64,000 nt of DNA from Octopus vulgaris (Eukaryota). The notes below the pieces were generated by a model. It was not told the DNA's origin. It saw only the letters and a program-made list of their open reading frames with translations, and ran no database searches. Positions 3,939-32,569 of the stretch are shown here, piece after piece (position 1 is the stretch's first letter; each line of letters opens with the position of its first letter). The position numbers and the translations under genes are program-made. The stretch is from positions 89,342,001 to 89,406,000 of the forward strand of contig OX597825.1 of the NCBI GenBank assembly GCA_951406725.2, in the 5' to 3' direction.

Positions 3939-4067
3939 AGACAGCCCTGAAGAGATCCGGTCCAATTAGGTTATTTTTAAAATCTACAAATTGTAACATG
4001 GTTCGAATCTTGCAGATGAGATGTACTGTTATACCTATCGACTAGATTGAAACATGTGTAGGCCTCT
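3939..4067 (+). ncRNA. Type I hammerhead-ribozyme-like motif with long stem II (PLE terminal-repeat type)
   Basis: GCC-CTGAAGA(3947-3953), stem II GATCCGGTC/GACTAGATT, GAAA(4049-4052)-C-ATGT-GTA-GGC; palindromic stem III; G10.1-U11.1 wobble. Confidence 0.6.
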
Positions 4068-4306: not shown

Positions 4307-4790
4307 CCTTAAAGCCTTGTAACTCTACTCTCTTCAGCGCCGCCGTGAGCGGTACATCATTTGTACGATGTGGTGAATATACCGCCAACTTTGACCAAAT
4401 TACCTGAACATTAGCTTCAAGGTTCATCCAAGACTGGGACAACGGGCCATACATCCCCTGCCCAAATCAGGATCACAGCATATATGTACACTGCAACATA
4501 ATTTCTTTTCCTCAACAGGCCCTGCCCTATTTAATATTGTCTCGAAAGAGATCAAAGAGGAAAAGGATCCCATCAACTTTAAACGGAGTCTGGATAGATT
4601 CCTTCAAAGAATACCAGATAAGCCACCCATAATTGGATACAACTCACCCAACAAAAACTCACTACTTGAATGGACCACAAACAAAATTTGACTTAAACAG
4701 GATTTAGATGATCCTATCAGGTGGTGCTATTAAGTTAGACATGGCCTGGACCAATCTTTGGTCGAAACATATCTATGTTTATCTAAGTTT
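4307..4790 (+). mobile_element. 5'-truncated 3' end of CR1-group LINE (same family as 22145-24480)
   Basis: Near-identical to ~24008-24480 (LYSLQRRRERYII motif; 3' UTR ggtggtgctattaagttagacatggcctgg; tail ctaagttt running into TA). Confidence 0.9.
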
Positions 4791-5288: not shown

Positions 5289-5492
5289 CTTCGTTTTGAG
5301 ATTTGGTTTGCAAGATTCTTTATTTGAGTTAGTGTGTTGAAGCATATTCTGTTGCGTCTGGGGAGAGTCATTTTCTTTTTGTGCCTTATAATTTAACACA
5401 CTCACCGGTAAAATGTCCACTTATTTCTTATTTTTATTTTCCTAAAATTTTCGTTGCGTCTTGCAACCTTTTCAATAGTCTTGTATTTACAC
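5289..5492 (-). mobile_element. Probable PLE terminal-repeat fragment with hammerhead-like core at 5441-5480
   Basis: Minus strand CTA-TTGAAAA-G-GTTGC-AAGAC-GCAAC-GAAAATTTTAG: U3-A8 core, 5-bp stem II, palindromic AAAATTTT; stem I weak. Confidence 0.4.
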
Positions 5493-6301
5493 TTCGTTCC
5501 TTTTTGTTTGTTTGTGCGCATGTGAAGGTCAATTTGTGTGTGTGTGTGTGTGTGCGCGCCTATGCATGCATGTATGTATGTATGTATGTAGGCATATGTA
5601 TATATGTATGTGTGCATCTGTATGTATGTATCCTGCATATTCATGTGCTTGCGTATTTTCTATGTATGTGTGTTTGTATATGTATGCACCTCTGTCTCCT
5701 TGTGAGTGCATATCTATGTGTGTGTTATGCAACTATGTATCATGTTTGTATGTATGGATATGCATCTCTATATGTGTGGATCCGTGTCTCCATATGTGTC
5801 CTTGTGTGTGTATATATGGTCATGTGTTTCAGTCTCCATTTGCGCATGTGTGCTTGTCTGTTCATATAACCTATCTACCTACCCGTCTCTATGTTGTTCT
5901 ACTTATTTTTATATCCATATGCTTACATACAAAAAATAAATAAATATATAAATGAAAAAATACAAAATATTTTTTAAAATGAAATGAAATGAAATTTTTT
6001 TTTTAATTTAATTTTTTTTAAAATTTCTTTTTATTTATTTATTTCTCTTCCATCGGGCAATTTTCGAGCCCTGTTGATGTAAGAAAGACTATGCATATTG
6101 AAGCTAACAACATTGGCTGCCCCGTCTCTGTTAGTTTGTGTCAGGTAAGCCATGTAATATTTAGTCAGAATAAAAAAAATAAACTAATCATACTCCATGA
6201 AGGGAATATCTTACAACCCAGAAACAAGCTGTCTGAAATGGCTCATACAACATTAAATCTGGGTGTCGAAACAGTTACACAACCACCCAAACGCGAAAGT
6301 G

Positions 6302-6605: not shown

Positions 6606-7514
6606 AATCCCTGGGATTTTTGTAACCGCGACCAATTCAGTCTCAATACTTGGCCCTTCTTTCCACTTGTTGTGGTTATTCTTCTATCCTTGTTCATGCC
6701 GCTCCAACACGTGTCCGCCAAACTGACCATAACTCTTCCCTCTTTCCTTATCCTCACCCGAATCCTAAACGCATCCCTTTTCCCCTGCTTTTGTACCCCT
6801 CTAACCTACCCATTCACTGGAAAATCCTACGGGTTTTCTGACTCTTCCAGTCCGATCTTACCACCCTTCTCTCCCCTAATTCATATGCACCTGAAACCAA
6901 CACAGCTTACTGGCCCGTAACTGCCTTCCCTTCCCTGAATCACGTTCGATAATATTATTCACAAGGAAAAACTAATTGTATGTTGTTTTTTTTAATATAA
7001 CTAGGAAAGGTTGCTTAAACTTGTGTGATAAGATGTACATTGATCAGGTGAAATAGGCTGTAATCTATATATTTATTCTTAAGAATATTCATAAAAATAT
7101 ATCAACCAACTATTGCTGAAATGCTCATAAAGAAGAAATATAAGTATTACCCCGAATAGCTTTCTTTGATTTAATATATTTTATTGTGCGTCCAAGTTTT
7201 TTCCTTGGAGTTTCAGGTTGTATGAACTCATTTCCTTTAAGGAAAAATATTCACTTACATATATGAAAAAAACATATATACAGGTGTAATAGAAAAAATA
7301 AAAAACAAGCACAATGTGTATAAAAAACCCATTAAATATAGAATTAAATATTTTTGTCTCTCTCCCACTCGCTTTTCCGTTCTATCTATCTATCTCTATA
7401 TAAATAGTTGTGTGTAAGTATCTATAAAAATATCAATAATGCATACACAAACAAACCTAATTATGTATATGTGTGTGTGTGTTTTTCCGAATTTGTGTAA
7501 ATATGTATAGAATA

Positions 7515-8492
7515 ATATATCAGTTGAATAAAGTTTCAACATGGTCCGGTTTTAATTTTTTTTTATTATTGTATTTTTAAAACATTACAATGTTGAAGTG
7601 TGTTAAACATTAAAAAAAAAAAATTTGTAATGTTCGTCAAGTTCAATTGTCGCTTTCATACGTTCGTAGTAATCATCCGATTTCAAAATGTACTTAACTG
7701 ACAGTTGATTTCTTGACAACGGTAGTAAAATAACTGACCTCTTTGTTTTTTATACATTTTAGAAAACTCCAGCAAGGTGAATTTTTCGGGTAAGGCTTTG
7801 ACCAATCAGCATATTTTGCCGGGTGCACCAATATTACTGGCATTGATCCTGCCTTTATTTTAACTAATTAGCTTAATGGTTTCTATGAGTGAACAAACTT
7901 AGTTGGTTTCGATCGTTTTTATTTCAATAGGTGGAGTCTTCTGTAATTTGTTTATATTCATAGCTGGTGTTATTTCCATTCCAGAGCTGGTTTGAACATT
8001 TTAATAAAACGTTTTTCTTTTATCTCTTTCAAACTCACTTGTTTCATGTAGTTTGTGGAATGGAAAATTTAGAAACATTTTCTGACCACATGTTTCTTGG
8101 TTCGCTCAAAGGAATTTGGCAAACATTTGTGTTCCGGATTTGCTGTCTGTGGACTCTTGAGCGTTCCGATAATGTATTCCCAGTCTCAGCAATATATAGT
8201 TCCTCGCAATTATGGTATTTAATTAGAGCATCAAGTCAAAACTCTATTCGAAAATTGCAGTTTGATGGAGCTTTCTAAAAAAGGGAAATAGTCAGTCATT
8301 CTACATTTGTCAAGAATTCAACTGTCAAATTCTTTTTGAAATCTGATGATTACTACGAACGTATGAAAACGCTGATTGAACTTAAAGAATATTTATTTAA
8401 TGTTTAATACACTTCAATGTTGTAAAAGAAATTGATGCAATAATAAACAACGTTAAAACCAGACCATGTCGTAACTTTATTTAACTGATATA
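7515..8492. mobile_element. Penelope-like remnant: GIY-YIG fragment (minus, ~8060-8230) between inverted ~200-bp terminal repeats carrying degenerate hammerheads
   Basis: Minus translation CEELYIAETGNTLSERSRVHRQQIR..PLSE; 7515-7725 is the diverged reverse complement of 8300-8492; CTGATGA-TTAC-TACGAAC-GTAT-GAAA at 8343-8368. Confidence 0.7.
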
Positions 8493-8494
8493 TA

Positions 8495-8985
8495 TGCGCA
8501 GGCGTGGCCGTGCGGTAAGAAGCTTGCTTCCCAACCACATGGTTTCGGGTTCAGTCCGCTGCTTTCAACTATGGTCTCGGGCAAACCAAAGCCGTGTGAG
8601 TGGATTTGGTGGACGGAAACTGAAAGAAGCCCGTCTAATATTCTTGTTTGCTGTTGTTTTTTGTTCCTTCTCGAGCCATACCTGGCTCATTAGAGCCGGT
8701 TTCCTGGGTTTCGTTGGTGTATAGGTACCCCACCTGGACGAGATTTGTATATATCTACGTGTGTGTGTCATTGTGTCTGCGTTTGTCACCCCTATCAGCT
8801 ATTGACAACTTGTGTTGGTGTGTTTACATCCTCGTAACTTAGCGGTTCAGTATAAGGAGCCGACAATAAGTACTAGGTTTCAGAAATAAGTCCTGGGGTT
8901 GATTTGATCGACTAAAATCCATTCAAGGTGGTGTTCCAGCATGGCCGCAGTCAAATGACTGAAACAAGTAAAGAAATAAAAGAAT
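8495..8985 (+). mobile_element. tRNA-derived SINE with LINE-type 3' tail; unrelated insert at ~8640-8745
   Basis: A-box-like tggccgtgcgg, B-box-like ggttcagtcc; body shared with copies at 62070-63110; tail ggtggtgttccagcatggccgcagtcaaatgactgaaacaagtaaa. Confidence 0.8.
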
Positions 8986-9484
8986 ATGTTAATATATAAA
9001 AATTTGTGCGTGTGTGTGCGTGTGTGCGTGTGTGTAAAGTGCATAGCAAAAATGCTTGTTCATACATAATTATTTTCATTGTCTTACACGTATTTCGTCA
9101 AGAATGAATAATAAAATATCTGTTATATTACGGAAACCTTAAGTGTAATTAGTATCAAATCAGTGATTGCATTTTTCTAAGAAGTACCTTTCAGATCTGT
9201 AGACGAAAATATAGGCTCTGTCACGGTATCGACTCTAGTGTTTTGGTCAAATTTGGTATTTGCGGATAGTACAGAGAAGTTAAATGTATATTACATTAGA
9301 AATGAAATCTTTGTGTCTCTATAAAAGAATGAGATATACATCAATAGTTATCAGCTTTCAAATATCTCAGCATGATATCCTTATATTCTATGGTATACGT
9401 GGGCATCCAGCCTGCTAATTAGCATACTTCTTCATGGCTACTTGCCAGTACACATGCACCCGTATATAAATAGATACTTAGATA

Positions 9485-11450
9485 CTTATCAAAGGCCTTG
9501 ATGAAGTCAAGATATATGACATCAGCATTGGATCCCTCATCCAAGGCCTTTAGGATATCGTCAAAATGATGCAGGAGCTGTGTAAGGCAGCCCTTGCCAT
9601 TGCGGAGACCATGCTGGTTGGGAACCAGCAGGTTGTTGCTTTCCAGGAAGTGAGTCACTCTAGATCGCACCACTCTCTCAAATAGTTTGATGAAATGAGA
9701 AGTAAGGGAGATAGGTCGGTAATTCGCTATCTGGGACTTGCAGATTTTTGGAAACTGGGACGATCGACTGAGAAAGGAAACCATCAGAAATGTAGCCAGC
9801 GTCTAGTGATTTCCTCCAGAGAATGGCTAAGGGGAATGTGAGGTGGTGACAGCATTCGTTCAGGACTTTAGCGGGGAATCTGTCAGGACCTGCAGCTGAG
9901 TTGTTTGTAATTATAGCTGTTATGATATCTGGGACACCAAATGATATATCACACAGGGTGTGCTCAGGTTTTGATTCGTCAATGCTATTCAGATTAATCA
10001 AATCTGGATTGCTAAAAGCGGAGCAGTATTGCTTCTGCAGAATCTTCACCATGTCCTCTTTGCCACTTTGCAGTGCGCTGTTTTCATCAATGAGAAGTCC
10101 ATTGGATGAGACTACAACCTTGTGCTTTTTAGCTTTCGGGTTGGCTTTAATTTTATCAATGGCCCATTTCTCCTCTGCTTTTCTTTGATCGTCAATAACA
10201 TTTTTCAAACAGTTTTGGAGATGGTGTTTCCTTGATTCTAGCTAGTCTATATCCGCCATGTGGGAGTATTGAAGCTGGCAATATTTTCGACGGTTGATTT
10301 TTTGATTCGTTCTCTTTATCTTTCGTATGAGTGATTTCCTGAGACGTGTTAGTCCGTATTTTATTTTGTTCATGGACTGTGGAGGTGTGTTGTGTAGACA
10401 TATGTTTATGACAATGTCCATAAATAGCTGCCATGATAAATCAATGCTTCTTGGAGTGAAAGAGTCTGCGAAAGAGCAGTCAATGAGTGAGAGCTTATGG
10501 TTGAGGCAGGCCAGTTAGCATTGTGAAGACCCATGCGATCGAAGGGCTGTGAGGGATTGAGATCACTCGGATACGCAATTGGCTGCCAAAATCTTAGGCG
10601 ACAGAGAACTATATCGTGGTCGGAAAGAAGAGTTTTTTTTTTCCACTGTAATATCGTGGATAGTGTTTGTGTGGTTGCTTAGCACTAAGTCCAGAATGTT
10701 CTTGTTGAATCTTGTTGGCACGAGCACGAGTTGGGACAGGTAAATTTCATCCATAAATTGAAATAGCGATTCCACTGCGGCTTTGTCTGAAGTGGAAATG
10801 CACGCACCAGTTTTCAGGGTATGAGTAGACCAGTTAACACAGGGGAAATTGAAGTCACCCACCATTATCAGGATGATATTGTTGGATGAAACACTTGATA
10901 TTTGTGAGGCAGTCCTTGAAGCACAATAGCATGAGTTGGTCTGAAGAGCCCAATTATTGCTAAATCATTCGCTTTGTTGTAGACAGATACTGATTCACAA
11001 TGGTCATTTGAAAATGAGACATTTGTTTCTGCAGTAAATTAGCCATGCAGGAAAATGGTGACTACCAGCTTTCTTCTACCGATGCGGTCTGCTCGAATTT
11101 TGGTGAAATTCCTTACTTTTATTTCAGCTTCCAAGTGGGAGTTGTCAAGGTGGATTTCAGTAAGGATGAAGAAGGGAATGTAATAAGTATGGTCGGTAAC
11201 CTAGTCCTCGGTGAATTAGAACCTTCCATCTTTTTGCATGGAAGGGGGTGAAGATGCCTTGTACATTGAGTAAGAATGTTGAGATTGGAGTAGTGGCCTG
11301 GTTAGACGTTTTTGGAGGCCCCGGAAGAGATTTATGGGTTAATGATATTGAGGAGGATAGGTTTTTGCACTGAGGAAGCGGCAGGGTTTGGTTCCGTGTG
11401 ATAGCCAAGATGCTCTTCTGGATCTCTTTCGTTAGGTTCCGCATGGCTCA
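9485..11450 (-). mobile_element. CR1-group LINE, APE plus N-terminal RT, frameshifted and 3'-truncated
   Basis: ORF pieces STFLLNVQGI, MVGDFNFPCVNW, NKNILDLVLSN, AAGPDRFP, NYRPISLTSH, YLDFIKAFDK; colinear with 25619-27500. Confidence 0.9.
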
Positions 11451-11574
11451 AAAAAAAGAATTAACCTGGTTAAGGAGAACTTCGTCGCTGGAGTTGTGCT
11501 TACATTCACAGTTATGTTGGTTGCGTATATATCCGTATGCATTCTATACATATGTACAAACCAAACATATATGC

Positions 11575-11722
11575 ACACATACATACATACATACATACAT
11601 ACATACATACATACACAGTCTCCTATGTATATGCAGACAGACAGACAGACAGACAGACAGGAAAAAAGGAAGATAGAAAGATAGATAGATAGATGGCTGG
11701 ATGGACAAGCAAGCAGGCAGGC
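11575..11722. repeat. Mixed tetranucleotide repeats (CATA, GACA, GATA, GGCA)
   Basis: Seen directly. Confidence 0.9.
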
Positions 11723-12134
11723 ACGTATTGTCCAGGGTATGGTGAGACTGTGGCAACAACACTTCATTGTTGTTTAAATTCAGTATCCATTACTCATATT
11801 GTTTTGCTTAAATTTATAGTTATTGACTGTTTTGTTAAGTATAGTATTGTGGCACTTGGAGGGTTTCGTGCAGAATTGATATAAAATCTAATTTCAGTTT
11901 CTGTTATGACGCTATATTTTAACTTCGAAGCACTTACCTTTAAGTGCAGTCATTCGTTGTTCTACAGTAATAGGCAGAGGGATTACTCGCAAAGTGTTCT
12001 AGGGATCCCAATAAATTTTGTATTATTCCCCTTGTTAAGCGGGTTATTATTTTCCTTCGTAATATTTTTTCTGTATAAATACTACTTAATTTAAATGTTA
12101 AGCTGGTGGTATTACTTATATGATCCTTTAGGGA

Positions 12135-12851
12135 CTTTTCTCATTCGAGGAAACCAAAAAGAGGTCTCAGGGGGCAAGATCGGATAAATAGGGAAGGTGG
12201 GTAAGCGGGGTTATGCCATTTTTGGTCCAAAAATGTCCCACACTCAAGGCAGCGTGTGGAGGAACATTGTCGTGACGAAACCACTACTCTCCACTTTGCC
12301 ACAGGTTGGCCGTTTTCGTTTCACCAAGTCTCGCAAACGCTTCAAACCTGCCAAGTAAATTGTCTGGTTAACAGTTTAACCAGGAGGGAAAAATTATGTG
12401 TCCTCTAAAATCAGTGCATGAATATTCGAGATGTTTTTCCTCCGTTCGGGAGGTCGGCGATCACTCTAAACGGGGTTGGTTTTCAAGCGACAAGCGGTCA
12501 TTCCTAAATCCTGAAAACTATTCGTAATTATGTGTTTCGCTCATAGCAGCGTCCTTGAAAATTGTTTGAAGCATGACAACTGTTTTAGTCGCCGTTTTTC
12601 CCAGCAGAAAGTAGAATTTCACGGAAGCACGTTGTTCCTTTGTTTCAGCAATCGCAAAAGTCGACGAACAGGAGAGAAGCACTAGAAAACAAAGACATAC
12701 CATATGGCAGTCCGGCTGAAATTGACGACGCCTGTCGACAGACCAATCCATATGGGTCGCATCAATTGGCTTCTGGTGGCGGAAGCCTCAACTACAACGG
12801 GCTTGTCCCACAGATAACATTTCCGGTTAGTTTTGGGTACCCCCTCTTGTA
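12135..12851 (-). mobile_element. Internally deleted mariner/Tc1 transposon remnant
   Basis: EQRASVKFYFLLGKTATKTVVML (mariner N-terminal HTH), HDNVPPH and LPYLSDLAP (cf. YSPDLAP); TIR-like tacaagagggggtacccaaaactaaccggaa ending in TA at ~12851; second TIR not found. Confidence 0.8.
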
Positions 12852-12865
12852 TGTATGTATGTATG

Positions 12866-12937
<72 letters not shown>

Positions 12938-13189
12938 CAGACAGACAGACAGACAGAGCAATAGATAGATAGATTGAGAGAGAGAGATATTATGCCTGTA
13001 TCTGCACTTAAAAGTTCTCATATTCAAAAACTCCTAAGGTCACAACCATTACTGTTAGAAGTTATTATAGAGCGATCCCGTTATTCGATAATCTAGTTTC
13101 TCATAGTGCTGTAGCTAAATCTATAATTCCGGGAATTACAATTGCAAACAATGAACAGAAAACCGTAGCTTCAAAAGAAGCAGAACATA

Positions 13190-13700
13190 TTTCCATTAGT
13201 ATGGTTTCTTATGGCTACTTGGATACTATGAACTCTTGCACTAAATCAATAAATTAATGGAACGATCTATTAGTTTGTGAATACCACAATTATATGGCAA
13301 AAGTTGAAGGATTTCTAAAAGAAACTAAATAGAGATATTGGTACGAAGAATAAGTGCAGTTGTAGTTTTAGGAAAACTTGTGCCTTCGATGGTAGCTGTA
13401 TCTATAAGAATGTAATATTTAAGTGTATGGTTAAAAATAATACCCGTTTTTACATTGTAGCTACATCTAAACCGGTGTAAACAACACAAAAAAACATTCT
13501 CGTTCATAAGCTTCCCTTTATGAACGAAAAGTTAATTCTTTTTATCTACTTTTAAATCTAAGAATGTAAAGTTTCGCATTAAATGGTCAGCTGAAATTTA
13601 GCAAGGTGACAGACGCACTTGCAGACTCTGTTTACGTAGGGCTCCAGGCATTTTATTCGCTTAACAAACACAATGGATTAAATGCAAATTGTTAACATAA
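13190..13700 (+). pseudogene. Decayed PLE GIY-YIG endonuclease fragment
   Basis: KTCAFDGSCIYKNVIFKCMVKNNTRFYIVATS at ~13373-13468 resembles the CPLDGxCLxxNVIYKAxV..YIGxT pattern. Confidence 0.5.
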
Positions 13701-15102
13701 ATTAAAAATAACGTGCACATATTACTTCAAAGAAAATGGCCAATGTTACCTGATCACAAAGTTGCAATTTTCCTCCCATTCTCACCTAAGTTTCTCCCCG
13801 ACCTCTCGTTTGAATTCCTATTTAGTATACCCATTTTCTTACTCATTTCTGTGTGGTACCGCGTTTTAGATCTTACTAATTTGCAGGTATCATAGAGACT
13901 AATCTTATATTATTGTCGTGTAACTACCTCTTTGTGGAACTACTATTGCAATTGTCCATTTTTAATGTGTTGCACTCATAATGGCACATCGCCATGGTTC
14001 CATTTCTTATAATTTTAAAACTCCCGATGAATTCCTGTATTTACAATATCTCTACAAACCGTGTATGTTGAACCGTTTTGTATTTCGCACTATCATTGAT
14101 CCACTAGTGACAAAGACATTTGGTTTGATCTCACTTATACGAACATTGTTCTGATATAACTACTTCTTGGTCTTACACTTCCTCATGAATTCAAACTTAT
14201 ATCAACTTCATCGATAGACCAATCGCTTTTGTGTCACTTAATGTAATTAGAATTATTGTGAAAATATTTTGCAAGTTGGCATGGAATTGGAAGGCTTAAT
14301 ATAAGTAAACAAGACAGAGTATATCTGTGATGCTCGAACTGACGTAATTCTTGTAAGGATCAAAATCTCAATAATTGTTTTGCTGAAAAAATATTGTTGT
14401 AATTAAAGCTTTTTGTTTGGGTGTCTCTTTGGGTCGTTAATTAAAATACTTCCCCTATCCTTTCTCCGACTAAAACTTATAGGCGTATCCCACTATTACT
14501 TTTGGCTTTTAAATTTCTTTATATTAATCCACTAATCGCTATTTTGTTTTAGTCTTTTACTTAACGCCCCAAGGAGACACACAAGCAAAATGGAATGATC
14601 ACAATCGTATTCAACTTTTCCCTTTCTCTTCTCTATGCTGTTCTTTATTATTTATTCTGGTGAAGCTCCTTGTTTCAGACCGGATTTCTGCCAAACTAGA
14701 ATTAATATTTTTACATATTTTTGCATATCAAGGGCAATGCTATACAACATTGGAAGCAGAAACAGCTGTTAAATGGGATGCAATCTATTTGCATTGAATT
14801 AAATAACAATTGACGTAAGTGAGTTGTTGTTCATCAGTACTTCTCAATTTTCTGTGTTCTGATATATATATATATAGCAACTGTATATAATACATATCAC
14901 GATGATATTTATTCTCCGATTTGAAGCGTCAATTTTTAAATATGTATGAGAAGTATTGGTATCCAGAAGACGCAAGACGGCAGGTATGGCTATATAAGTG
15001 CCACGGGTGGGTCGTGGTTAGACTCTCAGTTCGATAATTATACGAGCAAGGAGCCTAATGCGGGTCTTGTGTGAACATGTATATGTTACATGAAATGAAA
15101 CA

Positions 15103-15617
15103 ATAAAACCAAGGCTGTGTGGAATTTAAAGGAGATTTGTAAAGAGAAAGGCAATCTTACGGTGTTTCTGGGATATTACAGATGTCCCTTCATCAGAGAA
15201 AATATGAGTAAGTTGACTAGAGGTAAATAGAAGAATTCAATATAAGTTATTTTGGGAAAGGGTGGATATAGGAAATATAAAGGAATAAAATTAAAAGTAA
15301 AAATATATGTAGGATGTTGCAGTACCATTAGCCAAGAAAAGAGCTGTGTAGAATTGATAGAAAGGCTTCTTGTCTATGGTATGTAACAATATATCATACA
15401 TATATTTTAAATTGTATTTTTCTTTTCTTATTCCCATGTATACATCCTATATCCATCCTTTTCCAAATAAGTCCTTATTTTGAACACATCTATTTCTCTC
15501 TAGTTAGCTCTCTCATATCCTCTCTGATGAAAGGATACCCCTAATATTCCAGGAAAAGCTATAAGAATACATTTATTTTCATAAATGTCCAATGAATTCC
15601 ACACAACCTTGGTTTGG
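15103..15617. mobile_element. Diverged tail-out inverted repeat of PLE-type terminal repeats, each arm with a hammerhead-like core
   Basis: 15103-15300 is approximately the reverse complement of 15420-15617; minus 15155-15199 TCT-CTGATGA-AGGGA..TCCCA-GAAAC-ACC-GTA-AGA; more decayed plus copy at 15521-15566. Confidence 0.7.
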
Positions 15618-15629
15618 TGGTATCAGTTT

Positions 15630-15703
15630 CACACACACATACATGTATGTATGTATGTATGTATGTATGTATGTATGTATGTATGTATGTATGTATATAT
15701 GTG

Positions 15704-15752
<49 letters not shown>

Positions 15753-15801
15753 GTATATATATATATATGTATATATGTATATATATATATGTATATATAT
15801 G

Positions 15802-15854
<53 letters not shown>

Positions 15855-16366
15855 GTATATGTAAATATATATGCATATATATATGTATATGTATATGTAT
15901 ATATGTATATATGTATATATGTATATATATGTATATATGTATATATATGTATATATGTATGTATATATGTATATATATGTATATATGTATATATATATGT
16001 ATATATGTATATATATATGTATATATGTATGTATATATGTATATATGTATATATATGTATATATATGTATATAAATGTATATATATATATGTATATATAT
16101 GTATATATGTATATATATGTATATATGTATCTATAGGTATATATGTATATATATATGTATATATGTATATATATGTATATATATATATATCTGTATATAA
16201 ATGTATATATATGTAAATATATATGTGTATATATATGTATATATATGTGTGTATATAAACGTATATATATGTATATATATATGTGTATATAATTGTATAT
16301 ATATATATGTATATATATGTATATATATGTATGTATATATATATGTATATATAAGTATGTATATAT
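15630..16366. repeat. Compound (TATG)n/(TA)n microsatellite
   Basis: Seen directly. Confidence 0.97.
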
Positions 16367-18821
16367 CTCTTTTACTCTTTTACTTGTTTCAGCCATCCGG
16401 CTGAGGCCATGCTGGGGCACCGCCCTTGTTGCTACCCTCTCTAAGTCCAGTTTGCCGTGGCTGGCCACTGATCGAAGAGAGAGTTTGTAGCTGCTGCCCT
16501 TAGGTTACCTTCGTACCTTGCAGTGGGTTCATCTGGGATCCCGGAAAGCAGCTTGTCTAGATGTTTTTTGAAAATGTCCACATCCGCATCATGTAGATCT
16601 CTTAGTTTTCTTGGCAGTTTGTTGAACAGCTGAGGGCCCCTGAACCCCAGGCTATTACAGTATCTGCTCCTTACCCTGGATGTGGAAGACGGGACCTTTG
16701 GCACCACACAGTGACGTCCTGTACGGGGATTGGAACAGCTCTCAATTCCAAAATTTGGTGCTAGTCACTCCAGGATTTTCCATATGTATATCACTGCATA
16801 TCTCTCTCGTCTTCGTTCCAAGGAGTACAAATTGAGTTCCCTAAGCCTCTCCCAATAGTTCTTTTCTTTCATGGTGGAGATCCTCTTGGTGAAATGTCTT
16901 TGGATTGTCTCAAGCTCTGTGGTTAGTTTGACACTATGCGGTGACCACAGTTGGGAGCAGTAGTCCAGGCGGCTTAGGACAAATGTCCTCCATAGTGTCA
17001 ACATGGTCTCGCAGTCTCTTGTCCGGAATGTCCTCAGGATCCAGCCAGTGAGTCGTCTGCACATTGTCGCCACCTTCGCGATGTGTGAAGAAAAAGATGC
17101 ATCGTCACTCATGTCTATCCCCAGGTCCCGTATTGATTTCGATACTGGGATTTCGATCCCTCCTGGACCAGTATAGTTGTGTTGTAATGTATATGTGTTT
17201 ACAGCTTGATATTGTAAGGCTTGAAATTTACCAGCATTAAATTGCATGTTGTTGTCTTCAGCCCATTTGTATATGGCATCCAGATCTTGTTGTAAAAGGT
17301 CAGCATCAGCTGGGGTTTTGATTGCCTGTGCTACCTTTGTGTCATCAGCATAGCTAGTGAGGGATGTTGTTTGTGCTACCAAGGGCATGTCAGAGAGCGC
17401 CACCAAAAACAGCAAGGGTCCCAAGACTGTGCCCTGTGGCACCCCGCTTGCTATTGGTGTCTTTCCCGAGAGGGCTCCATTGGCTGCAACCATCTGGCTT
17501 CTGTCCTTCAGGAAGTCATGTATCCACTCACCTACTTTTCCTGTTATGCCGAGTCTGAGTAATTTGTGACATATCACTCCGTGGTCGACTTTGTCAAAGG
17601 CCTTCGCAAAGTCGAGATATACCACATCCACCTGTGAGCGATCCAGTAGTTGTTTCAGTACCCAGTCGTAGTGTTGTAACAGCTGCGTAAGGCAGCTTCT
17701 TCCTGGGCGAAAGCCATGCTGTGTGTCAGTGAGACGGTTAGTTTCTTCGAGGAACGTGATCAGTTTTTTTCTGATGATTCGTTCCATGACCTTACTTATG
17801 TGTGACGTCAGGGAGACTGGCCTGTAGTTTTTGGCCTCTGCTCTACTCCATCCTTTGTGGATAGGGCATATGGTGCCTTCTTTTAGCGCCCTGGGCAGTT
17901 TACTGTTAGCCAAGGAACCACTGAAGAGCTTCTTCAGTGGTCCCGCTAGGGCATGCCTGCATGTTTTCAGGAGGACTGCTGGGAATCCATCTGGTCCAGC
18001 AGCTGAGTTTATTCTCATTTCTTCTATGGCAGATATTACATCCCTCTCTGTTATGTCTATGTGGTCGATGGTTGTTGTTTGGTTTTGGAGTGTTGTGGCA
18101 TCAAAGAAAACTTCTGGGTTTGTGATTTGCATGTGCCCCAGAGGGGATGTGAACACACTTTTATACTGTTCCTTTAGTATTTCACTTATCCCTTGGGGGT
18201 CCTCAGTTAGAGAGCCCTTTTATCAAAGAGTGGGCCAATCTTGCAGTGTACCGAGGTGGTTTCTTTCGCAAATTTAAAGAAGGCTTTAGGGTTTGTTTTA
18301 ATATTCTCTATGGCCCTGGCTTTCTCTCTGCCCTCTCCTTATCATAGGAAAGTTTGAGTGCAGTTTCCGTTTCAAAAAGTTTCAGGTGGAGTCCCTCATT
18401 GTTTATCTGCCGTGCATTCAGTTGCTTCGAGAGCTTAGCTCTTCGCCTCATAAGTATTTTCCTGTCTCTCGGAATAACGTTCCTATGCCCGCTGGCTTTT
18501 TCTCCGGGACAAACTTATGGCATATGTTCTGTATTGTTGTCATGAAATGTTGGAAATGTGTGTTGGTGTCTTGTGTGGTGATGAAGTCACTCCAGTCATG
18601 TTTTCGGATCTCTTCGTTGATCTTCTTCCAGTTTGCCTTATGGAAGTTTAGACTGGATAGGCCTGTGGTATTTTCTAATGGCTGCGTCTCAACTAACTCT
18701 CTCATACCATATATCATTACCTCTACTAAGTTGTGATCTGAGAGAATTGTTGGTGTTACCATTATGTTGTGGATGAGCATCGGGTTGCTTGTGAAACAGA
18801 GGTCCAAGACATTCTCACCTC
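16367..18821 (-). mobile_element. 5'-truncated CR1-group LINE with 3' tail shared by SINEs
   Basis: [14 protein letters not shown] (end of APE), RT ORF, C-terminal FKKHLDKLLSGIPDEP..AATNSL; tail ggcggtgccccagcatggcctcagccggatggctgaaacaa then (GTAAAAGA)2. Confidence 0.95.
16765..18156 (-). CDS. Non-LTR retrotransposon reverse transcriptase (463-aa open segment of a disrupted ORF2)
   Basis: [60 protein letters not shown]. Confidence 0.85.
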   Translation of the reverse strand: MFTSPLGHMQITNPEVFFDATTLQNQTTTIDHIDITERDVISAIEEMRINSAAGPDGFPAVLLKTCRHALAGPLKKLFSGSLANSKLPRALKEGTICPIHKGWSRAEAKNYRPVSLTSHISKVMERIIRKKLITFLEETNRLTDTQHGFRPGRSCLTQLLQHYDWVLKQLLDRSQVDVVYLDFAKAFDKVDHGVICHKLLRLGITGKVGEWIHDFLKDRSQMVAANGALSGKTPIASGVPQGTVLGPLLFLVALSDMPLVAQTTSLTSYADDTKVAQAIKTPADADLLQQDLDAIYKWAEDNNMQFNAGKFQALQYQAVNTYTLQHNYTGPGGIEIPVSKSIRDLGIDMSDDASFSSHIAKVATMCRRLTGWILRTFRTRDCETMLTLWRTFVLSRLDYCSQLWSPHSVKLTTELETIQRHFTKRISTMKEKNYWERLRELNLYSLERRRERYAVIYIWKILE

Positions 18822-18880
18822 TTATATATGTATATATATATATGTATATATGTATATATATGTATATATGTATATATATG

Positions 18881-18911
<31 letters not shown>

Positions 18912-19620
18912 GTATATATATGTATATATATATGTATATATGTATATATATGTATATATATGTATGTATAAATATATATGTATATATATGTATATATATA
19001 AATATATATGTATATATATGTATATATATAAATATATATATGTATATATATGTATATATATAAATATATATGTATATATATGTATATATATAAATATATA
19101 TGTATATATATATATATAAATATATATGTATATATATGTATATATATAAATATATATGTATATATATATGTATATATATAAATATGTATGTATATATATA
19201 TGTACATATATGCATATATATGTATATATTTATACGTATATATATGTATATATATGTATATATATGCATATATATGTATTTATATGTATATGTATATATA
19301 TGTATATGTATATATATGTGTATACATATATATATGTATATACATATATATATGTATATACATATATATATGTATATACATATATATATGTATATTCATA
19401 TATATATGTACATACATATATATATGTACATATATATATGTATGTATACATACATATATATATGTATACATATATATATATATGTATATATATGTATACA
19501 TATATATATATATGTATATATATGTATACATATATTTATATATATATATGTATATATATGTATACATATATATATATAAATATATATGTATATATATGCA
19601 TATATATGTATATATATAGA
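18822..19620. repeat. Compound (TA)n microsatellite with higher-order ~30-bp and 18-bp units
   Basis: aaatatatatgtatatatatgtatatatat repeats at ~18970-19190; tatacatatatatatgta repeats at ~19320-19400. Confidence 0.95.
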
Positions 19621-19851
19621 TAAAAGAAATCATTTAAACCCACCATTCTTTTGACCTGCACTCTCTCACCTTACTAATCTTATGCCTCTCTCCTCCTACT
19701 TCGTTTGAACCCTTGAACCTTTAGAACCTTCTAGATTCTTCTGCATTCAGCCACTCTGACGTCACTCCTTATAAAGAGACACTCATTATCGCCATGGGCT
19801 CCTTCAGAGCGGTCAGCTAAAGGTTTTTGTGCATTTTGATGTCGACATATG

Positions 19852-19950
19852 TTCCTTGATTTTCCTGATGAGAAATATGCATAATGTACTCCTTATTCCT
19901 TCGGAATTAGGAATATGCAGCCTTCGAAACATGTGTCGAGAATAAAGGAT
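19852..19950 (+). ncRNA. Type I hammerhead ribozyme with intact core, in a solo PLE-type terminal repeat (~19625-20140)
   Basis: Stem I TCCTTGATTTTC/GAGAATAAAGGA; CTGATGA 19865-19871; extended stem II (GAA/TTC, TGCATA/TATGCA, ATTCC/GGAAT); GAAA 19926-19929; C-ATGT-G; GTC triplet, predicted cleavage after 19937. Confidence 0.75.
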
Positions 19951-20174
19951 ATTTGTTATCTAGTCGTTCAACTCAATTCTTTCATATACTTATAATTTTA
20001 AAATAAACATACAAATTTCGGCATAAAGACACGTATTCTATGCCCTAGGGACGTAGCTTCAACCGTGTTCTTTCTGATGTGAATTTGCTACCCAGGTATC
20101 GGTTATCTTTCGAATTATCCTTAATAAGATAATTCATTCAACTACTCAAATATATATACATATATATATATTTT

Positions 20175-21393
20175 TTTTATTTTATCTAGTTTCAGCTCAC
20201 GAGCTGTGACCATGCTGGGGCACCGCCATTTGGTGTTGCTACACGATTTTACTGCACGAAAGCATTTTAGCAATTGCCATTTGGTGCATGAGAGAGTTCG
20301 ATGCAGCTGCCCTAATCTGCACCTCCTGCCATGAAGTTGATTCATCTGGGACACCTGACAAGAAGAGAACCAGTTTTATTTTAAAGACATCTTCATCCAC
20401 CCCATGCAAGTCTCTCAGGTCCTCTCGGGATGATATTGAAGAGCTGTGGGCCTCTGAAGCCCAAGCTATCACAGTATCTTGTCCTACATCTTGATGGAAA
20501 TTTGGAGTCCTTGGCACTATGCAGTGGCACCCACACCTATTTCTCGATGCCAAAGTTTGGGACAAGTCCTTCTAGGGTCTTCCAGATGTATATTACGGCA
20601 TATCTTTCTCGCCTACGCCCTAAGGAATAGAATTTTAATATCTTGAGTCTTTCCCAGTAGCTTATATGATGCACAGAGGCTATCTTCTTCGTGTAGCTTC
20701 GTTGGATCGCCTCAAGTTCTGTGATTAACTTGACACTGGATGGTGACCATAGCTGAGAGCAACAGTCAAAGTGGCTTAGGACAAGTGTCTTCTAGAGGAC
20801 CATCATGGTTTCCTGGTCTATTGTTCTAAAGGTTCTAAGAATCCATCCAGTCAGCCGCCTACACTTCATTGCCAATTTAGCAACATACACATGAAAGGTT
20901 GCATCATTACTAATGTAAATACCCAGGTCTCACACTGATTGCGCCTCTGGGATCGCAATCCCTCCTGGTCCAGTGTATTTATTGGGTATTACATTTAGTT
21001 TGGCATGCTGATAGCATAAAGCTTGAAACTTTTCAGCATTGAACTGCATGCTATTCTTTTCAGCCCACTTGTATATTTTGTCCAGCACACATTGCAGGGT
21101 CATAGTGTCTTCAGCATTCTGTATTGCCTGTGAAACTTTTGTATCATCTGCATAACTTGTGATCGTAGCACTCTGCATGGCTGAGGGCATGTCTGAGAGG
21201 GCCCTTATGAACAGTAGTTGTCGCAAAACAGTGCCTTGCGGAACACCACTCACTATTTGCGTCTATCCTTCAGAAAGTCATGAAGCCATTCTCCCAATTT
21301 TCCAACTATGCCAAGATCACGCAGTTTGTGACATATCATTCCATGATCGACTTTATCAAAGGCTTTTGCAAAGTCGAGATATGATTTCCACAT
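20175..21393 (-). mobile_element. 5'-truncated CR1-group LINE (second half of RT to 3' end), frameshifted
   Basis: [41 protein letters not shown]; tail ggcggtgccccagcatggtcacagctcgtgagctgaaac. Confidence 0.92.
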
Positions 21394-21404
21394 ATACATA
21401 TATG

Positions 21405-21435
<31 letters not shown>

Positions 21436-21684
21436 GTATGTATGTATGTATTTATGTATGTATGTATGTATGTATTTATGTAAGGTATGCATATATATAT
21501 ATGTATGTATATATATATATATTTATGTAATGTATACATATATATATATATGTATGTATATATATATTTATGTTATGTATGCATATATATATATATATGT
21601 ATAAGGGTGAAAAGGAACACACGAGTTGATATATATGAAAAAACAAGTCAAAAATAGAAAATGCTAAAATAATTTTATAGTGAA

Positions 21685-21733
21685 CATTTCAGTACCGGTT
21701 TCGGTCATTTTGAGACCTTTTTCAACTGTAACG
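21685..21733 (-). ncRNA. Minimal type I hammerhead ribozyme, U3-A8 variant (left arm of palindrome)
   Basis: Reverse complement of 21987-22034 with one extra A after the core (TTGAAAAA-GGTC). Confidence 0.68.
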
Positions 21734-21986
21734 ATTAAATAATTAAATTTAGAAAAATTAGAAGAAAAGTTTTTTAAAGGAATATTTCTATAGTAGTGTT
21801 CAGATATAAGTGGCATTCTGCCTTTCTCTGACTCCCTTGTTTGCACTTGTGTGTTCGAGGTCGAACACACAAGTGCAAACAAGGGAGTCAGAGAAAGGCA
21901 GAATGCCACTTATATCTGAACACTACTATAGAAATATTCCTTTAAAAAAACTTTTCTTCTAATTTTTCTAAATTTAATTATTTAAT

Positions 21987-22034
21987 CGTTACAGTTGAAA
22001 AGGTCTCAAAATGACCGAAACCGGTACTGAAATG
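21987..22034 (+). ncRNA. Minimal type I hammerhead ribozyme, U3-A8 variant (right arm of palindrome)
   Basis: Stem I CGTTACAG/CTGAAATG; TTGAAAA 21995-22001; stem II GGTC/GACC; GAAA 22017-22020; palindromic ACCGGT stem III; GTA triplet, predicted cleavage after 22026. Confidence 0.7.
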
Positions 22035-22078
22035 TTCACTATAAAATTATTTTAGCATTTTCTATTTTTGACTTGTTT

Positions 22079-22140
<62 letters not shown>

Positions 22141-22144
22141 GTAT

Positions 22145-24480
22145 AGTACTCTGCAATTTTAATTCCCGACATATAAAAACCAAACCAGTCAATACCACTC
22201 CATGGCATTCATTTGACAACATAAACTTCCACAAAGTGGACTGGGGAGCAATCAGAAAGGATCTGTCTTTCATCGATTGGTCTTTTACTCTCAATTCCAC
22301 CCATATTGAGACCGCATGGTAGCAATTTCAGAACATTGTCACCCATACATGCTCTAAACACGCTCCTATGAAATCTACTAACACAAACAGAAACCGGCTC
22401 CCTAAAAAGAAAAAAAACACTCATCAGGCACATCAAAAGATTCAATAAAAAAATCAACAAATTAAAATATTCCCACATACAACATCCACATTCAACAACA
22501 ATGAAAAGGCTAGAGCTGGAAAAACTTCATCTGCAGACTGGCATGAAAACCTCCATTGAAAATCAAAGAGCTGTGGAGGAACAGTGGGTAATCAAAAACA
22601 TCAAACAGAACCCAAAAGTGTTCTATTCTTATGCAAATAAGCATAGAACCGCTGCCTCACCCATTGGGCCATTGATTGATGATAACGGCATTCCCTAACA
22701 CGATGCTAAAGAAATAATACTGCTCTGTCTTTAGTGTTCCCACTGATATTGACGTAAGAGAAGCGAACGAAGTTGATGCCCAAACATAAAATCTCAGACA
22801 TAACCTTCACTGCCTCTAACATCATTGCAGCAATAAATGAGGTCAAATACTACTCTGTAGTAGGCCCTGATAGATTCCCCGCTAGTCTCCTGAAGGAATG
22901 TAGACACCAACTTGCAATCCATCTGACCAACCTCTGGAGAAATTCGTTAGACGCAGGTTATATAACGAAACAGCTTCTATCACAGTCTGTTATCCCGGTT
23001 TTCAAACAGGGAAACAGATCCCTTGCAGTCAACTACCGCCCAATCTCACTCACCTCCCACATCATTAAAGTGTTTGAAAGAGTGTTAAGAACAAGGATAG
23101 CTGACTTCCTGGAGAACCCACAAACTCCAAAGTGCAAATCAGCATGGCTTTCGCTGTGGCAGGGACCGTCTAACACAGCTCTTACACCACATTGAAGATA
23201 TACTTAAAGCCTTGGGAACAGGTTAGAACTCTGATGTAATATATCTTGACTTCAGTAAAGCGTTCGACAGGGTTGACCATAATATCCTACTCTCAAAATT
23301 GGCAACTGTTGGAATCCGTGGAAAGCTTCTACACTGGATTAAGTATTTCCTGGCGAATAGAACACAACATGTTGTAGTTGATGGATTCCACAAAAGGCCA
23401 GCAAAAGTCACCAGCGGTGTCCCTCAGGGGACTGTCTTGGGCTCTCTTCTGTTTATAATTTATATAAATGACCTTTCCAGTGTCGTACATTACTGCAAAG
23501 TGAAAATATTTGCTTATGACACTAAGGTCCAGCAAATCATCAATGAAGAAGCACACCGAACTCAACTCAGTCTGATCCATATGCTGTGAGTCAATGAGCA
23601 GACAGAAACAAAATGCAACTGAACGAGGGAAAATTTGAGCTGATGCATTTTGGAAGAAATTCCACTCTAAAACAGCCATACTCTCTTCCTTCAAGGGAAC
23701 CGCTCACAGCCTCTAACAATATCAGAGACCTGGGCGTAATTGTTGATGACAATCTCAGTTGGGGTGCCCACATCAACAATAGGGTCGATATAGCTCGTAG
23801 GATGAGTTCCTGGATCTTAAGAACCTTCCGGTCCAGAGAACAATGTGTCATCATACCACTTTTCTCCTCCTTTGTGCGGCCACACCTCGAATACTGCTGC
23901 CCACTGTGGTCTCCCCATACAAGACAAAACATCTCGGGAATTAAATCACCAGAGAAGGCACTCACTAAACGAATTGAAGGCATGGCTGCTCTCGATTATT
24001 GGGACCTCCTTAAAGCCTTGAAACTCTACTCTCTCCAGCGCTGTCGTGAGCGGTACATCATTTGTACGATGTGGAGAATATACTGCCAACTTTGACCAAA
24101 TTACCTGAACATTAGCTTCAAGGTTCATCCAAGACTGGGACAACGGGCCATACATCCCCTGCCCAAATCAGGATCACAGCATATATGTACACTGCAACAT
24201 AATTTCTTTTCCTCAACAGGCCCTGTCCTATTTAACATTGTCTCGAAAGAGATCAAAGAGGAAAAGTATCTCATCAACTTTAAACGGAGTCTGGATAGAT
24301 TCCTTCAAAGAATACCAGATAAGCCACCCAAAATTGGATACAACTCACCCAACAAAAACTCACTACTTGAATGGACCACAAACAAAACTTGACTTAAACA
24401 GGATTTAGATAATCCTATCATGTGGTGCTATTAAGTTAGACATGGCCTGGACCAATCCTTGGTCAAAATATATCTAAGTT
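22145..24480 (+). mobile_element. 5'-truncated CR1-group LINE with several frameshifts and stops
   Basis: NFHKVDW, NPKVFYSY, NYRPISLTSH, SGVPQGTVLGSLLF, FAYDTK, LEYCCPLWSP, LYSLQRCRERY; 3' UTR as at 4710-4790. Confidence 0.95.
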
Positions 24481-24497
24481 TATATATGTATCTATAT

Positions 24498-25215: not shown

Positions 25216-25698
25216 TTACCCACTCGAAACCCCATCATTTGCCGATATTCTCTTCGCCATATACTGTGCACTGATAGAGACTGCAAATTCACCCATTTAC
25301 CTGGAACAAAACGCTCTGTCCCCACAAACTACAACAGCAACCACTATAATACAACACCACCACAACCACCAATATCTCAAACAAGGAATCCCCAAATCTT
25401 CCGCTATTCCCAGCGAGACAGATTGTGTTTGCACAGGGATTGCCCCTTTAACCATCTCCCGGGGACTCGTCGGACATTTAAAGATAACCACTCACATAAA
25501 AATAGCCGCGGCCACAGTCACCTGCGGTTCCCTAGACAGGAAACTACCTCTTCTTCCTCTTTTTTAGCTATAATGAATCTATCACCCACCACCATCCACC
25601 ACTATTACCCCACTGCACATGCCATTAAAAAGCAATCAAATAAACAAATCACCAAAACAATTAAATTCATCCACTCTCGCCTCAACATTTCTGCTTAA
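25216..25698 (+). CDS. LINE ORF1 C-terminal portion with two CCCH-like motifs
   Basis: [23 protein letters not shown] and [23 protein letters not shown]; overlaps the ORF2 start in another frame; the ORF track's N-terminus (25132) is microsatellite. Confidence 0.6.
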
Positions 25699-28633: not shown

Positions 28634-28717
28634 ACTGAAAGACTTCGCCAGGTAGTGCTATTAAGTTAGACATGGCCTGGGCCAATACTGGCCAAAACCT
28701 TTCTAATTTATTCTAAG

Positions 28718-28762
<45 letters not shown>

Positions 28763-31661: not shown

Positions 31662-31728
31662 ATGTATATGTATATATATGTATATATATATATGCCTTTG
31701 AAAATTTGAAACGTTTGTTGTTATCATT

Positions 31729-31950
31729 AAGGCGCTCAGCTGATAGAACCGTTAGAACTCTGCACAAGATTCTTAGCGTTATTTCTTCTACCGCTACGTT
31801 CTGAGTTCAAACTCCACCGAGGTCGACTTTGCCTTTCAATCCATTTAGAGTCGATAAAATAAGTACCAGTTGAACACTGAGGACGAAGTATTCGATTTAG
31901 CTCCTCTCCCAATATTGCTGGCCTTGTGCCAAAATTTGAAACCATTATTA
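31729..31950 (+). mobile_element. tRNA-derived SINE, second family (copies at ~36924-37148 and ~42099-42323)
   Basis: gagttcaaactcc B-box; conserved core ccgaggtcgactttgcctttca..tcgataaaataagtaccagt; (ATT)n tail. Confidence 0.8.
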
Positions 31951-31986
31951 TTATTTAGTAGGTGTAGTAGTAGTAGCAGCAGCAGC

Positions 31987-32074
<88 letters not shown>

Positions 32075-32569
32075 TACCGTCAACTTTGACTTTCATCTAT
32101 TCAAGGTCGGTAAATATAAGTATTAGTGCTTAGGGTATTCGGTTCACGAAAATGGCTTTGCGCTAAAATTTAAAACTATTATTATTACTGTTATTGTTGC
32201 CACTACTACTACTGCAACTATTAATACTAATAATGATGATAATATCAATTGTCCAGGCAATGGCTCTCATGACTTCTCATCTTAACTGATTGGAAGGGTT
32301 ATCATCTATATGTTTTGCTTTGGTGTAAAAGATGGGCTACAGTAGACATTCTGCTCTAAACCTCTGGAAACATACTCGTTTAGTTTATCATCGTTAAACA
32401 ATTCTTATTCAGAGAATTTTTTAGCGGGATGTGCTACTCGACCTGAAGAAAACACTAACTGTGCTGCTAACTTTGGTGTGAGTTCACCATGTCTGGCACA
32501 ATTGGGTTGATGCATGTGTCTAATAAGATGTACCCTTATCTTCACAGTTTGTCCTGATGTGTATATTCT

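Follow-up and report, generated by a model that had tools for sequence, protein, structure and literature searches.

Three head-to-head hammerhead-bearing cassettes in Octopus vulgaris as probable products of ordinary PLE insertion

Insertions of endonuclease-positive (EN+) Penelope-like elements (PLEs) have been described as carrying an inverted, 5'-truncated copy adjoining the 5' end, together with a one-sided tail of 30-40 bp, and as occupying (TA)n targets; the same account calls the mechanism which makes the inverted copies unresolved (PMC8557442). In the Penelope of Adineta vaga, head-to-head is the most frequent arrangement and palindromes occur at the junction (Arkhipova et al. 2013, PMC3846280). 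Dual minimal hammerheads (min-HHRs), located on opposite strands and 100-700 bp apart, were reported in metazoan PLEs, and a U3-A8 variant of the core has been described among them (Cervera and De la Pena 2014, PMC4209133). The PLE RT-endonuclease cuts and extends both target strands, at AT-rich targets, and two RT start sites correspond to the tail ends (PMC11167929). Neptune-type PLEs possess a CxxC Zn-finger-like linker before GIY-YIG (PMC8557442), and hammerheads repeated in tandem have been suggested to be non-autonomous derivatives of PLEs (bioRxiv 10.64898/2026.07.22.740005). Head-to-head inverted pLTRs, junction palindromes, one-sided tails and opposite-strand hammerhead pairs are all already known for PLEs.

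We showed by arm-versus-arm alignment that three inverted repeats (R1, R2 and R3) are present where the original prediction had placed them in the window (the whole 64-kb stretch of O. vulgaris DNA analysed). The arms of R1 span 7515-7802 (minus strand) and 8235-8493 (plus), with 214 of 256 aligned positions identical; those of R2 span approximately 15091-15338 (minus) and 15367-15631 (plus), with 208/259 identical in a local alignment (15075-15646) which extends into the flanking microsatellite; those of R3 span 21629-21858 (minus) and 21861-22090 (plus), with 229/229 identical and, additionally, two 1-nt homopolymer length differences. The respective scores were 199, 167 and 432, against shuffle maxima of 29, 31 and 30 (100 shuffles each). 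All 12 between-cassette arm pairs scored 18-28, under their own shuffle maxima of 26-35 (100 shuffles each); the three families are therefore unrelated at the DNA level, in agreement with the predicted lack of similarity among the cassettes. The predicted layout (left arm minus, right arm plus, hammerhead cores pointing outward) was likewise found in 3/3 cassettes. The cores are located at 7679(-)/8343(+) in R1, 15196(-)/15524(+) in R2 and 21725(-)/21995(+) in R3, i.e. 664, 328 and 270 nt apart, and each cassette has an inverted 5'-truncated copy joined head to head at the 5' end, arm polarity following the ORF in R1 and, in the other two, the hammerhead. The arms are inverted and have no directly repeated copies within the 64-kb window, so the cassettes lack the head-to-tail tandem order of retrozymes. 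By eye, no target-site duplication (TSD) was readable at the cassette flanks, which consist of microsatellites or a SINE-like repeat, the microsatellites obscuring any such signal. In an inverted-repeat search of the whole window, (TA)n dominated the output.

R1 is demonstrably a cut-down PLE tail end in head-to-head shape: its arms are retroelement ends. The long arm (7515..8235, minus) is a 5'-truncated PLE copy comprising the endonuclease C-terminus, the 3' UTR and the pLTR. The GIY-YIG remnant which had been predicted in the spacer was confirmed at 7979..8226 (minus), split among three reading frames and cut off at the first GIY motif, beside the inversion junction (HMM matches 8226-8071, 32.3 bits, and 8164-7979; 44.3 bits for the endonuclease versus a shuffle maximum of 6.9, with 0/200 shuffles reaching this score). 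The spacer thus consists of the endonuclease end and 3' UTR of the long arm, and R1 alone among the three cassettes has C-terminal GIY-YIG sequence preceding the terminal repeat in the same orientation. The remnant is detectable only with profile HMMs, built from relatives of the window's own PLE element at 57.7 kb, to whose endonuclease it is 38% identical; with the 63-aa R1 piece, a Pfam search gave no match and a word-based homologue search 0/25 candidates. Behind the short inverted arm (8235..8493, plus), a pLTR copy, come a short run of TA and a SINE-like repeat. A possible one-sided tail of about 33 nt (7482..7514, minus), recognised by eye, seems to lie between the end of the long arm and a (CA)/(TA) microsatellite. 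The left hammerhead motif (7640..7685, minus) is degenerate, with a CGGATGA core and C where U16.1 is expected. The right one (8337..8382, plus) retains an intact CTGATGA core, shares the T...T flanks of stem II with related PLEs, and is predicted from its sequence to be inactive, having G at the cleavage position.

The cassettes are truncated downstream of RT, and an RT+EN remnant unrelated to them lies at 56873-58085. The 57.7-kb element has a C-x4-C-x2-C motif before the endonuclease, comparable to the linker of Neptune elements (PMC8557442), and the R1 remnant matches the HMM from relatives of this element. The truncation point of R1 lies beyond the linker, on its downstream side, so that a Neptune affiliation of R1 is only putative. 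In 7/17 related PLE loci (5 distinct families; 3/17 loci end with the ORF) the stop codon is followed 155-190 nt later by a sense hammerhead, and 5 of these 7 combine the T...T stem II flanks of R1 with the GAAA-CCGG-T stem III of R3. The R1 long arm has this order too, its sense-strand core following the endonuclease end at a greater distance, about 300 nt. None of the 17 loci matched the three cassettes at the DNA level, and none contained inverted repeats, although as short element-body contigs they are uninformative on orientation. For P0003, no relative was found in viral contigs.

R2 and R3 are likely also cut-down PLE tail ends in head-to-head shape. The left arm of R2 (15091..15338, minus; likely a pLTR) carries an intact CTGATGA...GAAA...TA core at 15196 with stem I TCT/AGA, while stems II and III of the core at 15524 are decayed in the right arm (15367..15631, plus), which ends in a (CA)/(TA) microsatellite. 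The unpaired centre (15339..15366) has no coding signal, and no one-sided tail was seen. Neither R2 nor R3 yielded a coding remnant, their HMM scores being at shuffle level (reached by 198/200 and 186/200 shuffles, respectively). As this analysis linked neither of them to a PLE reading frame, their assignment to PLEs rests on motif, tail and architecture. Two signals were rejected: a PFYQF-like by-eye reading of the R2 centre, and a weak match of the HMM to the R3 arms (E 2-3) that disappeared with 155 sequences.

R3 was compared with contigs of four public runs (X1, X3 and X4, genomic; X9, guessed to be RNA), its left half plus centre serving as the query. The family is abundant (3334, 956, 1744 and 43 matching contigs in 4/4 runs), with no letter other than U3 and A8 listed at these core positions at a threshold of 3%; the R3 hammerhead pattern gave 0 matches in metagenome contigs. 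The long arm (21629..21863, minus; U3-A8 minimal hammerhead at 21725) is preceded by a one-sided tail (21600..21628, minus), which is family sequence in the contigs and measures 25-37 nt, depending on the placing of the short end within the TA run. Contigs from 4/4 runs cover 21606-21629, and 32 (X1) and 24 (X4) contigs exit into (TA)n at 21629; the family therefore has two 3' ends, with and without the tail, and R3 has the tail on its left copy only. The family sequence of the long arm continues through the 2-nt centre to 21863. The fold point is the family's own 8-nt mini-palindrome (21856..21863; 3-bp stem, 2-nt loop), 140 nt upstream of the ribozyme, at which the arms overlap by 3 nt. The short arm (21861..22090, plus) contains a U3-A8 minimal hammerhead at 21995 (stem II GGTC/GACC, palindromic stem III, UA cleavage site, stem I CAG/CTG) and ends in (TA)n. 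The best-supported loose ends lie at the fold point: behind 21863, 14, 7 and 11 contigs of X1, X3 and X4 enter one shared continuation, i.e. family copies continue upstream in 3/4 runs. Both arms carry minority alleles at 21761 and 21779, where the other letter makes up 60-77% of the depth in the three genomic runs, which fits one template. R3 is a very young insertion of this abundant family.

In one X3 contig (depth 8.4), antisense and sense sequence meet at different breakpoints (21759 to 21877); this single-contig joint might alternatively stem from an allele of R3 itself that carries a deletion. Another joint, 21774-21863 (one X4 contig, opposite strands), was left uncounted, as it is readable as either a head-to-head or a tandem join. 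No contig bridging the R3 centre was present among the 32 of 6094 pieces listed, and a junction contig would be short. In all three genomic runs the summed depth is reduced over 21858-21869; depth, however, does not measure copy number, and a reduction there would be expected from edge effects. Coverage in X9 does not extend past 21869, an observation without evidential weight.

The spacer is the unpaired part of the longer arm, as seen in R1 through the endonuclease remnant and in R3 through the contigs, in which its 2 nt are present as family sequence. Lengths of about 570, about 120 and 2 nt had been predicted. Only the last was accurate, the true values for R1 and R2 being 432 nt and 28 nt (about 20 nt if one 3-nt gap, placed by eye, is allowed). 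Arm divergence (K2P, SE about 0.025) is 0.187 in R1, 0.235 in R2 and 0 in R3, the arms of which show 0 substitutions. R1 and R2 are thus of similar age, and the intermediate spacer belongs to R2, whose arms differ most; among these n=3 cassettes, spacer length tracks neither arm divergence nor age. The proposal of a graded series, with spacers shrinking with age, was consequently not borne out.

In summary of likeness, R1-R3 resemble the EN+ PLE insertion unit in their 5' truncation, inverted copy and outward 3' ends (Craig et al. 2021, PMC8557442), and further in the tail at one end (R3), the microsatellite flanks and the hammerhead within the pLTR; unlike that unit, they lack the direct upstream pLTR, and the ORF is gone in R2 and R3 and nearly gone in R1 (PMC8557442). 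The arms, 230-290 nt long, compare with pLTRs of 181-218 bp in Adineta vaga Penelope, where the tail is 31-bp long, the junction overlap 15 bp (3 nt in R3) and TSDs of 8-10 bp are readable, which they are not in R1-R3 (PMC3846280). The motifs share with min-HHRs the type I layout, the short palindromic stem III and the unpaired base before stem II, R3 also the U3-A8 covariation, and all pairs fall within 100-700 bp on opposite strands; R1 has T opposite T where min-HHRs usually have G10.1-C11.1, a feature common to the related loci (PMC4209133). Non-LTR retrozymes are similarly short, non-coding and hammerhead-bearing, but head-to-tail, whereas the cassettes are inverted (bioRxiv 10.64898/2026.07.22.740005). 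It is very probable that the cassettes are ordinary PLE insertion products. The recurrent PLE integration mechanism that had been suggested for them holds in that these are, in R2 and R3 probably, PLE ends from recurrent integration; the architecture is the published standard.

We regard it as fairly probable that two-strand priming, followed by a microhomology join of two truncated pLTR copies, explains the cassettes. In each, a terminal repeat with a hammerhead would be present twice, both copies being 5'-truncated and joined head to head, likely in one insertion event. The RT-endonuclease would nick an AT-rich or (TA)n target on both strands, and reverse transcription would start at two sites within the terminal repeat, leaving one end with a tail and the other without; both cDNAs would probably stop early and join via a short inverted microhomology (in R3, the 3-bp mini-palindrome). 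The spacer would be the part of the longer copy beyond the reach of the shorter one and, being fixed at insertion, its lengths of 432, about 28 and 2 nt would represent draws from a truncation distribution and not stages of decay. No junction microhomology is readable in R1 and R2, due to their arm divergence of 16-20%. Within ordinary PLE insertion, this mechanism is only slightly ahead of fold-back self-priming, a possible though less probable course in which a truncated cDNA or antisense template snaps back on an inverted microhomology and copies itself, the copy being cut proximally. Self-priming has been proposed from junction palindromes (PMC3846280), and it would suit R3, which turns exactly on the family's mini-palindrome and whose arms end no more than 5 nt apart and have the same minority alleles; however, in R1 it would need a 432-nt loop, and the one-sided tail would require an extra step, whereas two RT start sites explain it directly (PMC11167929).

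MITEs are uniform multi-copy inverted-repeat units moved by a DNA transposase. The cassettes resemble them as inverted-repeat derivatives; nothing in this analysis demonstrates an amplified palindrome of that kind, and the arms of R1 are retroelement ends. Under the original prediction, cassettes would become shorter with time, and R3, as a perfect palindrome, would be a non-autonomous unit of MITE-like kind which spreads whole. The youth and perfect palindromy of R3, the great abundance of its arm sequence and the tandem-repeat derivatives proposed in bioRxiv 10.64898/2026.07.22.740005 would fit this, but we find it highly unlikely: besides the lack of ranking between spacer and age, family copies read on past the R3 fold point, which leaves a series ending in ribozyme palindromes unsupported, the other joints seen have different breakpoints, and for three hammerhead-like loci of the window no partner lies within 3 kb. 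Moreover, deletion between arms cannot explain R3, because its centre is native sequence of the long arm. It is very unlikely, too, that the palindrome is a non-autonomous PLE-mobilised unit, with the mini-palindrome as a programmed turn point and the hairpin remade repeatedly or recopied whole; if true, this would define a retro-MITE class of elements. No PLE family of MITE-like or palindromic type turned up in the literature search, which most subscription papers lay outside. If a single pLTR copy had been folded back on itself in the library or the assembly, the arms could differ only in homopolymer length, as those of R3 do, and the window contains a 100-N gap and near-identical 5-kb duplications. 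We consider such an artefact the most improbable reading, since R3 loses its symmetry precisely at the short 3' end of the family, the tail is one-sided, the flanks are two different unique LINE remnants and both homopolymer variants occur in the family.

As ordinary retroelement debris, such cassettes are open to mislabelling as MITEs or miRNA hairpins by repeat annotators; the extracts of the O. vulgaris repeat annotation (PMC13282606) contain no mention of "hammerhead" or "palindrom-". With its youth, its abundant family and its fold point on a native 3-bp mini-palindrome, R3 is the one useful handle, and the junctions of its family would bear on fold-back versus two-strand priming, i.e. 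on the question of PLE inverted copies (PMC8557442).

The ribozymes themselves would be passengers: they lie on opposite strands, are partly decayed in R1 and R2, and folding predicts that the two motifs are buried in a long hairpin of any read-through RNA. The pairing probability of stem II was 0.000 in 5/5 whole-cassette folds and 0.00-0.32 (weak folding) in isolated arms, and folding z-scores ranged from -1.3 to +1.2 in 6/6 cassette motifs. A strict minimal-hammerhead scan of the 64-kb window gave 4 sites (15196, 21725, 21995 and the unpaired 5475) versus 0.05 per shuffled window (20 block shuffles). It passed 3/6 cassette motifs, namely R2 left, whose loop III is non-palindromic, and both of R3, and missed the three degenerate cores (both of R1, and R2 right). 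Rfam detected no hammerhead in R2, nor any (clan CL00010) among the best 150 of 254 rows for the whole window; on the R3 right arm it reported only Hammerhead_HH9 (19.7 bits versus a gathering threshold of 52, E 0.011). The whole-window Rfam scan was dominated by miRNA hairpin models, and R3 matched a plant miRNA model with E 6e-11, below gathering.

Local alignment confirmed that the window holds three inverted repeats: R1 (7515-7802 and 8235-8493; 214/256 positions identical), R2 (about 15091-15338 and 15367-15631; 208/259 with flanks) and R3 (21629-21858 and 21861-22090; 229/229, plus two 1-nt homopolymer differences). They are real, with arm-versus-arm scores (199, 167 and 432, respectively) far above shuffle maxima near 30. 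The expected lack of similarity among the cassettes was also borne out, all 12 cross-cassette arm pairs scoring 18-28, inside the shuffle range, as was the outward direction of the six hammerhead-type cores (7679/8343 in R1, 15196/15524 in R2 and 21725/21995 in R3). The spacers measure 432 nt in R1, 28 nt in R2 (roughly 20 if one gap is allowed) and 2 nt in R3. The original prediction gave the last of these correctly and overestimated the other two (~570 and ~120 bp), because inner stretches of their arms had been overlooked. Arm length is 230-290 nt in all cassettes, close to the 181-218 bp published for the terminal repeats (pLTRs) of Penelope-like elements (PLEs; PMC3846280), and the short arms start 108-157 nt upstream of the core.

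The proposed PLE origin proved right for R1 and is likely for R2 and R3. On the minus strand of R1, positions 8226 to 7979 code for the C-terminal portion of a PLE GIY-YIG endonuclease, spread over three frames (44.3 bits with a 155-sequence profile; 0/200 shuffles as high), which bears out the remnant suspected in this spacer. The endonuclease frame breaks off at its first GIY motif, immediately next to the start of the inverted arm (8235); the “spacer” is therefore the portion of the long (left) copy that is absent from the short copy. Among 17 loci of related PLEs, three of which stop before any 3' UTR, seven (five distinct families) carry a sense-strand minimal hammerhead (min-HHR) 155-190 nt past the stop codon, and five of these seven have the unusual T...T stem II flanks of R1 and the GAAA-CCGG-T of R3. 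For R2, a profile search gave no coding signal, and its likely assignment is drawn from motif and architecture.

Four of the related loci (L003, L005, L007 and L009) have in common an 8-bp inverted repeat about 70-120 nt 3' of the hammerhead core, possibly a stem-loop at the reverse transcriptase (RT) start or tail. The contig ends of L003, L007 and L016 directly repeat each other over 47-160 bp, as expected for assembled tandem PLE units. The window also contains a 5'-truncated PLE remnant at 56873-58085 (+), with RT, thumb, Cys-rich linker and GIY-YIG, which begins at a (TA)n run and shares about 90% identity with P0002; because its 3' end enters the single 100-N gap (58245-58344), no pLTR can be seen. 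Further PLE RT N-terminal fragments, in direct repeat (88% identity), lie at 59188-59541 and 60434-60678 (+).

A strict hammerhead scan passed three of the six cassette cores and one unpaired site (0.05 in a shuffled window). The sole Rfam result on the cassettes scanned was a sub-threshold Hammerhead_HH9 match on R3, and R2 gave no hammerhead match. In R1, damage at core or cleavage positions affects both motifs; in R2 the left motif retains core, UA site and stem I, and the right one is decayed. The predicted stem II pairing probability was 0.000 in all five whole-cassette read-through RNA folds and 0.00-0.32 in isolated arms. Min-HHRs are thought to require a tandem dimer (PMC4209133), which the two motifs of a cassette, lying on opposite strands, are unable to form.

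Paired outward orientation is not universal among the hammerhead-like motifs of the window: for those at 3947(+), 5475(-) and 35345/40518(+, duplicated), no partner in direct or inverted orientation exceeded shuffle level within 3 kb. In the first (3944-4063), the CTGAAGA core is intact, stem I is GCC/GGC, the sequence GAAA-CATGTG-TA is present, and stem II contains an insert of 95 nt. The second belongs to a pLTR-like stub (5290-5530) with a U3-A8 core and a folding z of -2.59, which leads into (TA)n and is not related to R3. The third is decayed (stem II GTCC/GGAC) and lacks an endonuclease signal.

Contigs from four of 24 listed runs, mapped onto 21570-21905, revealed the R3 arm to be an abundant repeat (3334, 956, 1744 and 43 contigs, counted for the arm). 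The 3' end of the family comes in two forms: at 21629, 32 and 24 contigs exit into (TA)n, and others cover 21606-21629, a stretch found on the left copy only. Together these features are a PLE tail signature. At the two core positions where R3 deviates from the canonical core, no alternative letter was listed among the contigs; U3-A8, a variant published for PLEs (PMC4209133), is therefore native to the family and not a product of decay. Contigs that match across the 2-nt centre as far as 21863, and from there pass into one common upstream sequence, number 14, 7 and 11 in three of the runs. Hence the centre is native to the long arm, the arms share a 3-nt overlap, and the fold lies on an 8-nt mini-palindrome (21856-21863) belonging to the family itself. 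In one contig, antisense is joined to sense at different breakpoints (21759-21877), which could be either a separate insertion or a deletion allele; another joint can be read in more than one way.

These data do not support the supposed series of cassettes ageing as their spacers shrink. K2P distances between arms are 0.187, 0.235 and 0 for spacers of 432, 28 and 2 nt, so that R1 and R2 are similar in age despite a 15-fold difference in spacer. The MITE-like end point likewise finds no support in R3, whose centre is family sequence that other copies continue upstream.

The architecture itself is already known. Arkhipova et al. 2013 (PMC3846280) describe head-to-head as the commonest arrangement and report palindromes where the copies meet, and inverted pLTRs and 3' extensions appear as routine PLE features in a curation guide (PMC8969392). 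The core-to-core distances of 664 (R1), 328 (R2) and 270 nt (R3) fall within the 100-700 bp reported for dual min-HHRs on opposite strands (Cervera and De la Pena 2014, PMC4209133). At AT-rich sites, a purified PLE protein cut both strands and extended them, and it started reverse transcription at two positions that match the tail ends (PMC11167929). Given the structure, polarity, R3 tail and R3 junction microhomology observed here, both target strands may prime, both cDNAs would abort early, and the aborted cDNAs could then join via inverted microhomology. Both R3 arms carry family-minority alleles at 21761 and 21779, which fits one template. The main rival is fold-back self-priming (PMC3846280), in which the cDNA makes the inverted arm itself, and the R3 junction fits it as well as it fits two-strand priming.

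The window as a whole is animal-type DNA (35% GC), rich in (TA)n runs, short repeats and LINE remnants, and its repeat features resemble those of an octopus genome. Those with long RT or endonuclease frames lie at 4307-4788, 9489-11283, 16370-18219, 20172-21382, 22150-24489 and 25577-28719 (for example 27113-28633, 506 aa). A dispersed repeat of ~530 bp, with trinucleotide runs at its bounds, occurs as an inverted pair (79%) at 43290-43824 and 44560-45071; no hammerhead was found in this pair, and the copies are probably independent insertions. The duplicated motif at 35345/40518 lies inside a ~5.2-kb block present in two to three tandem copies (31699-43651; 98-100% identity), the duplication being either recent or a product of the assembly.
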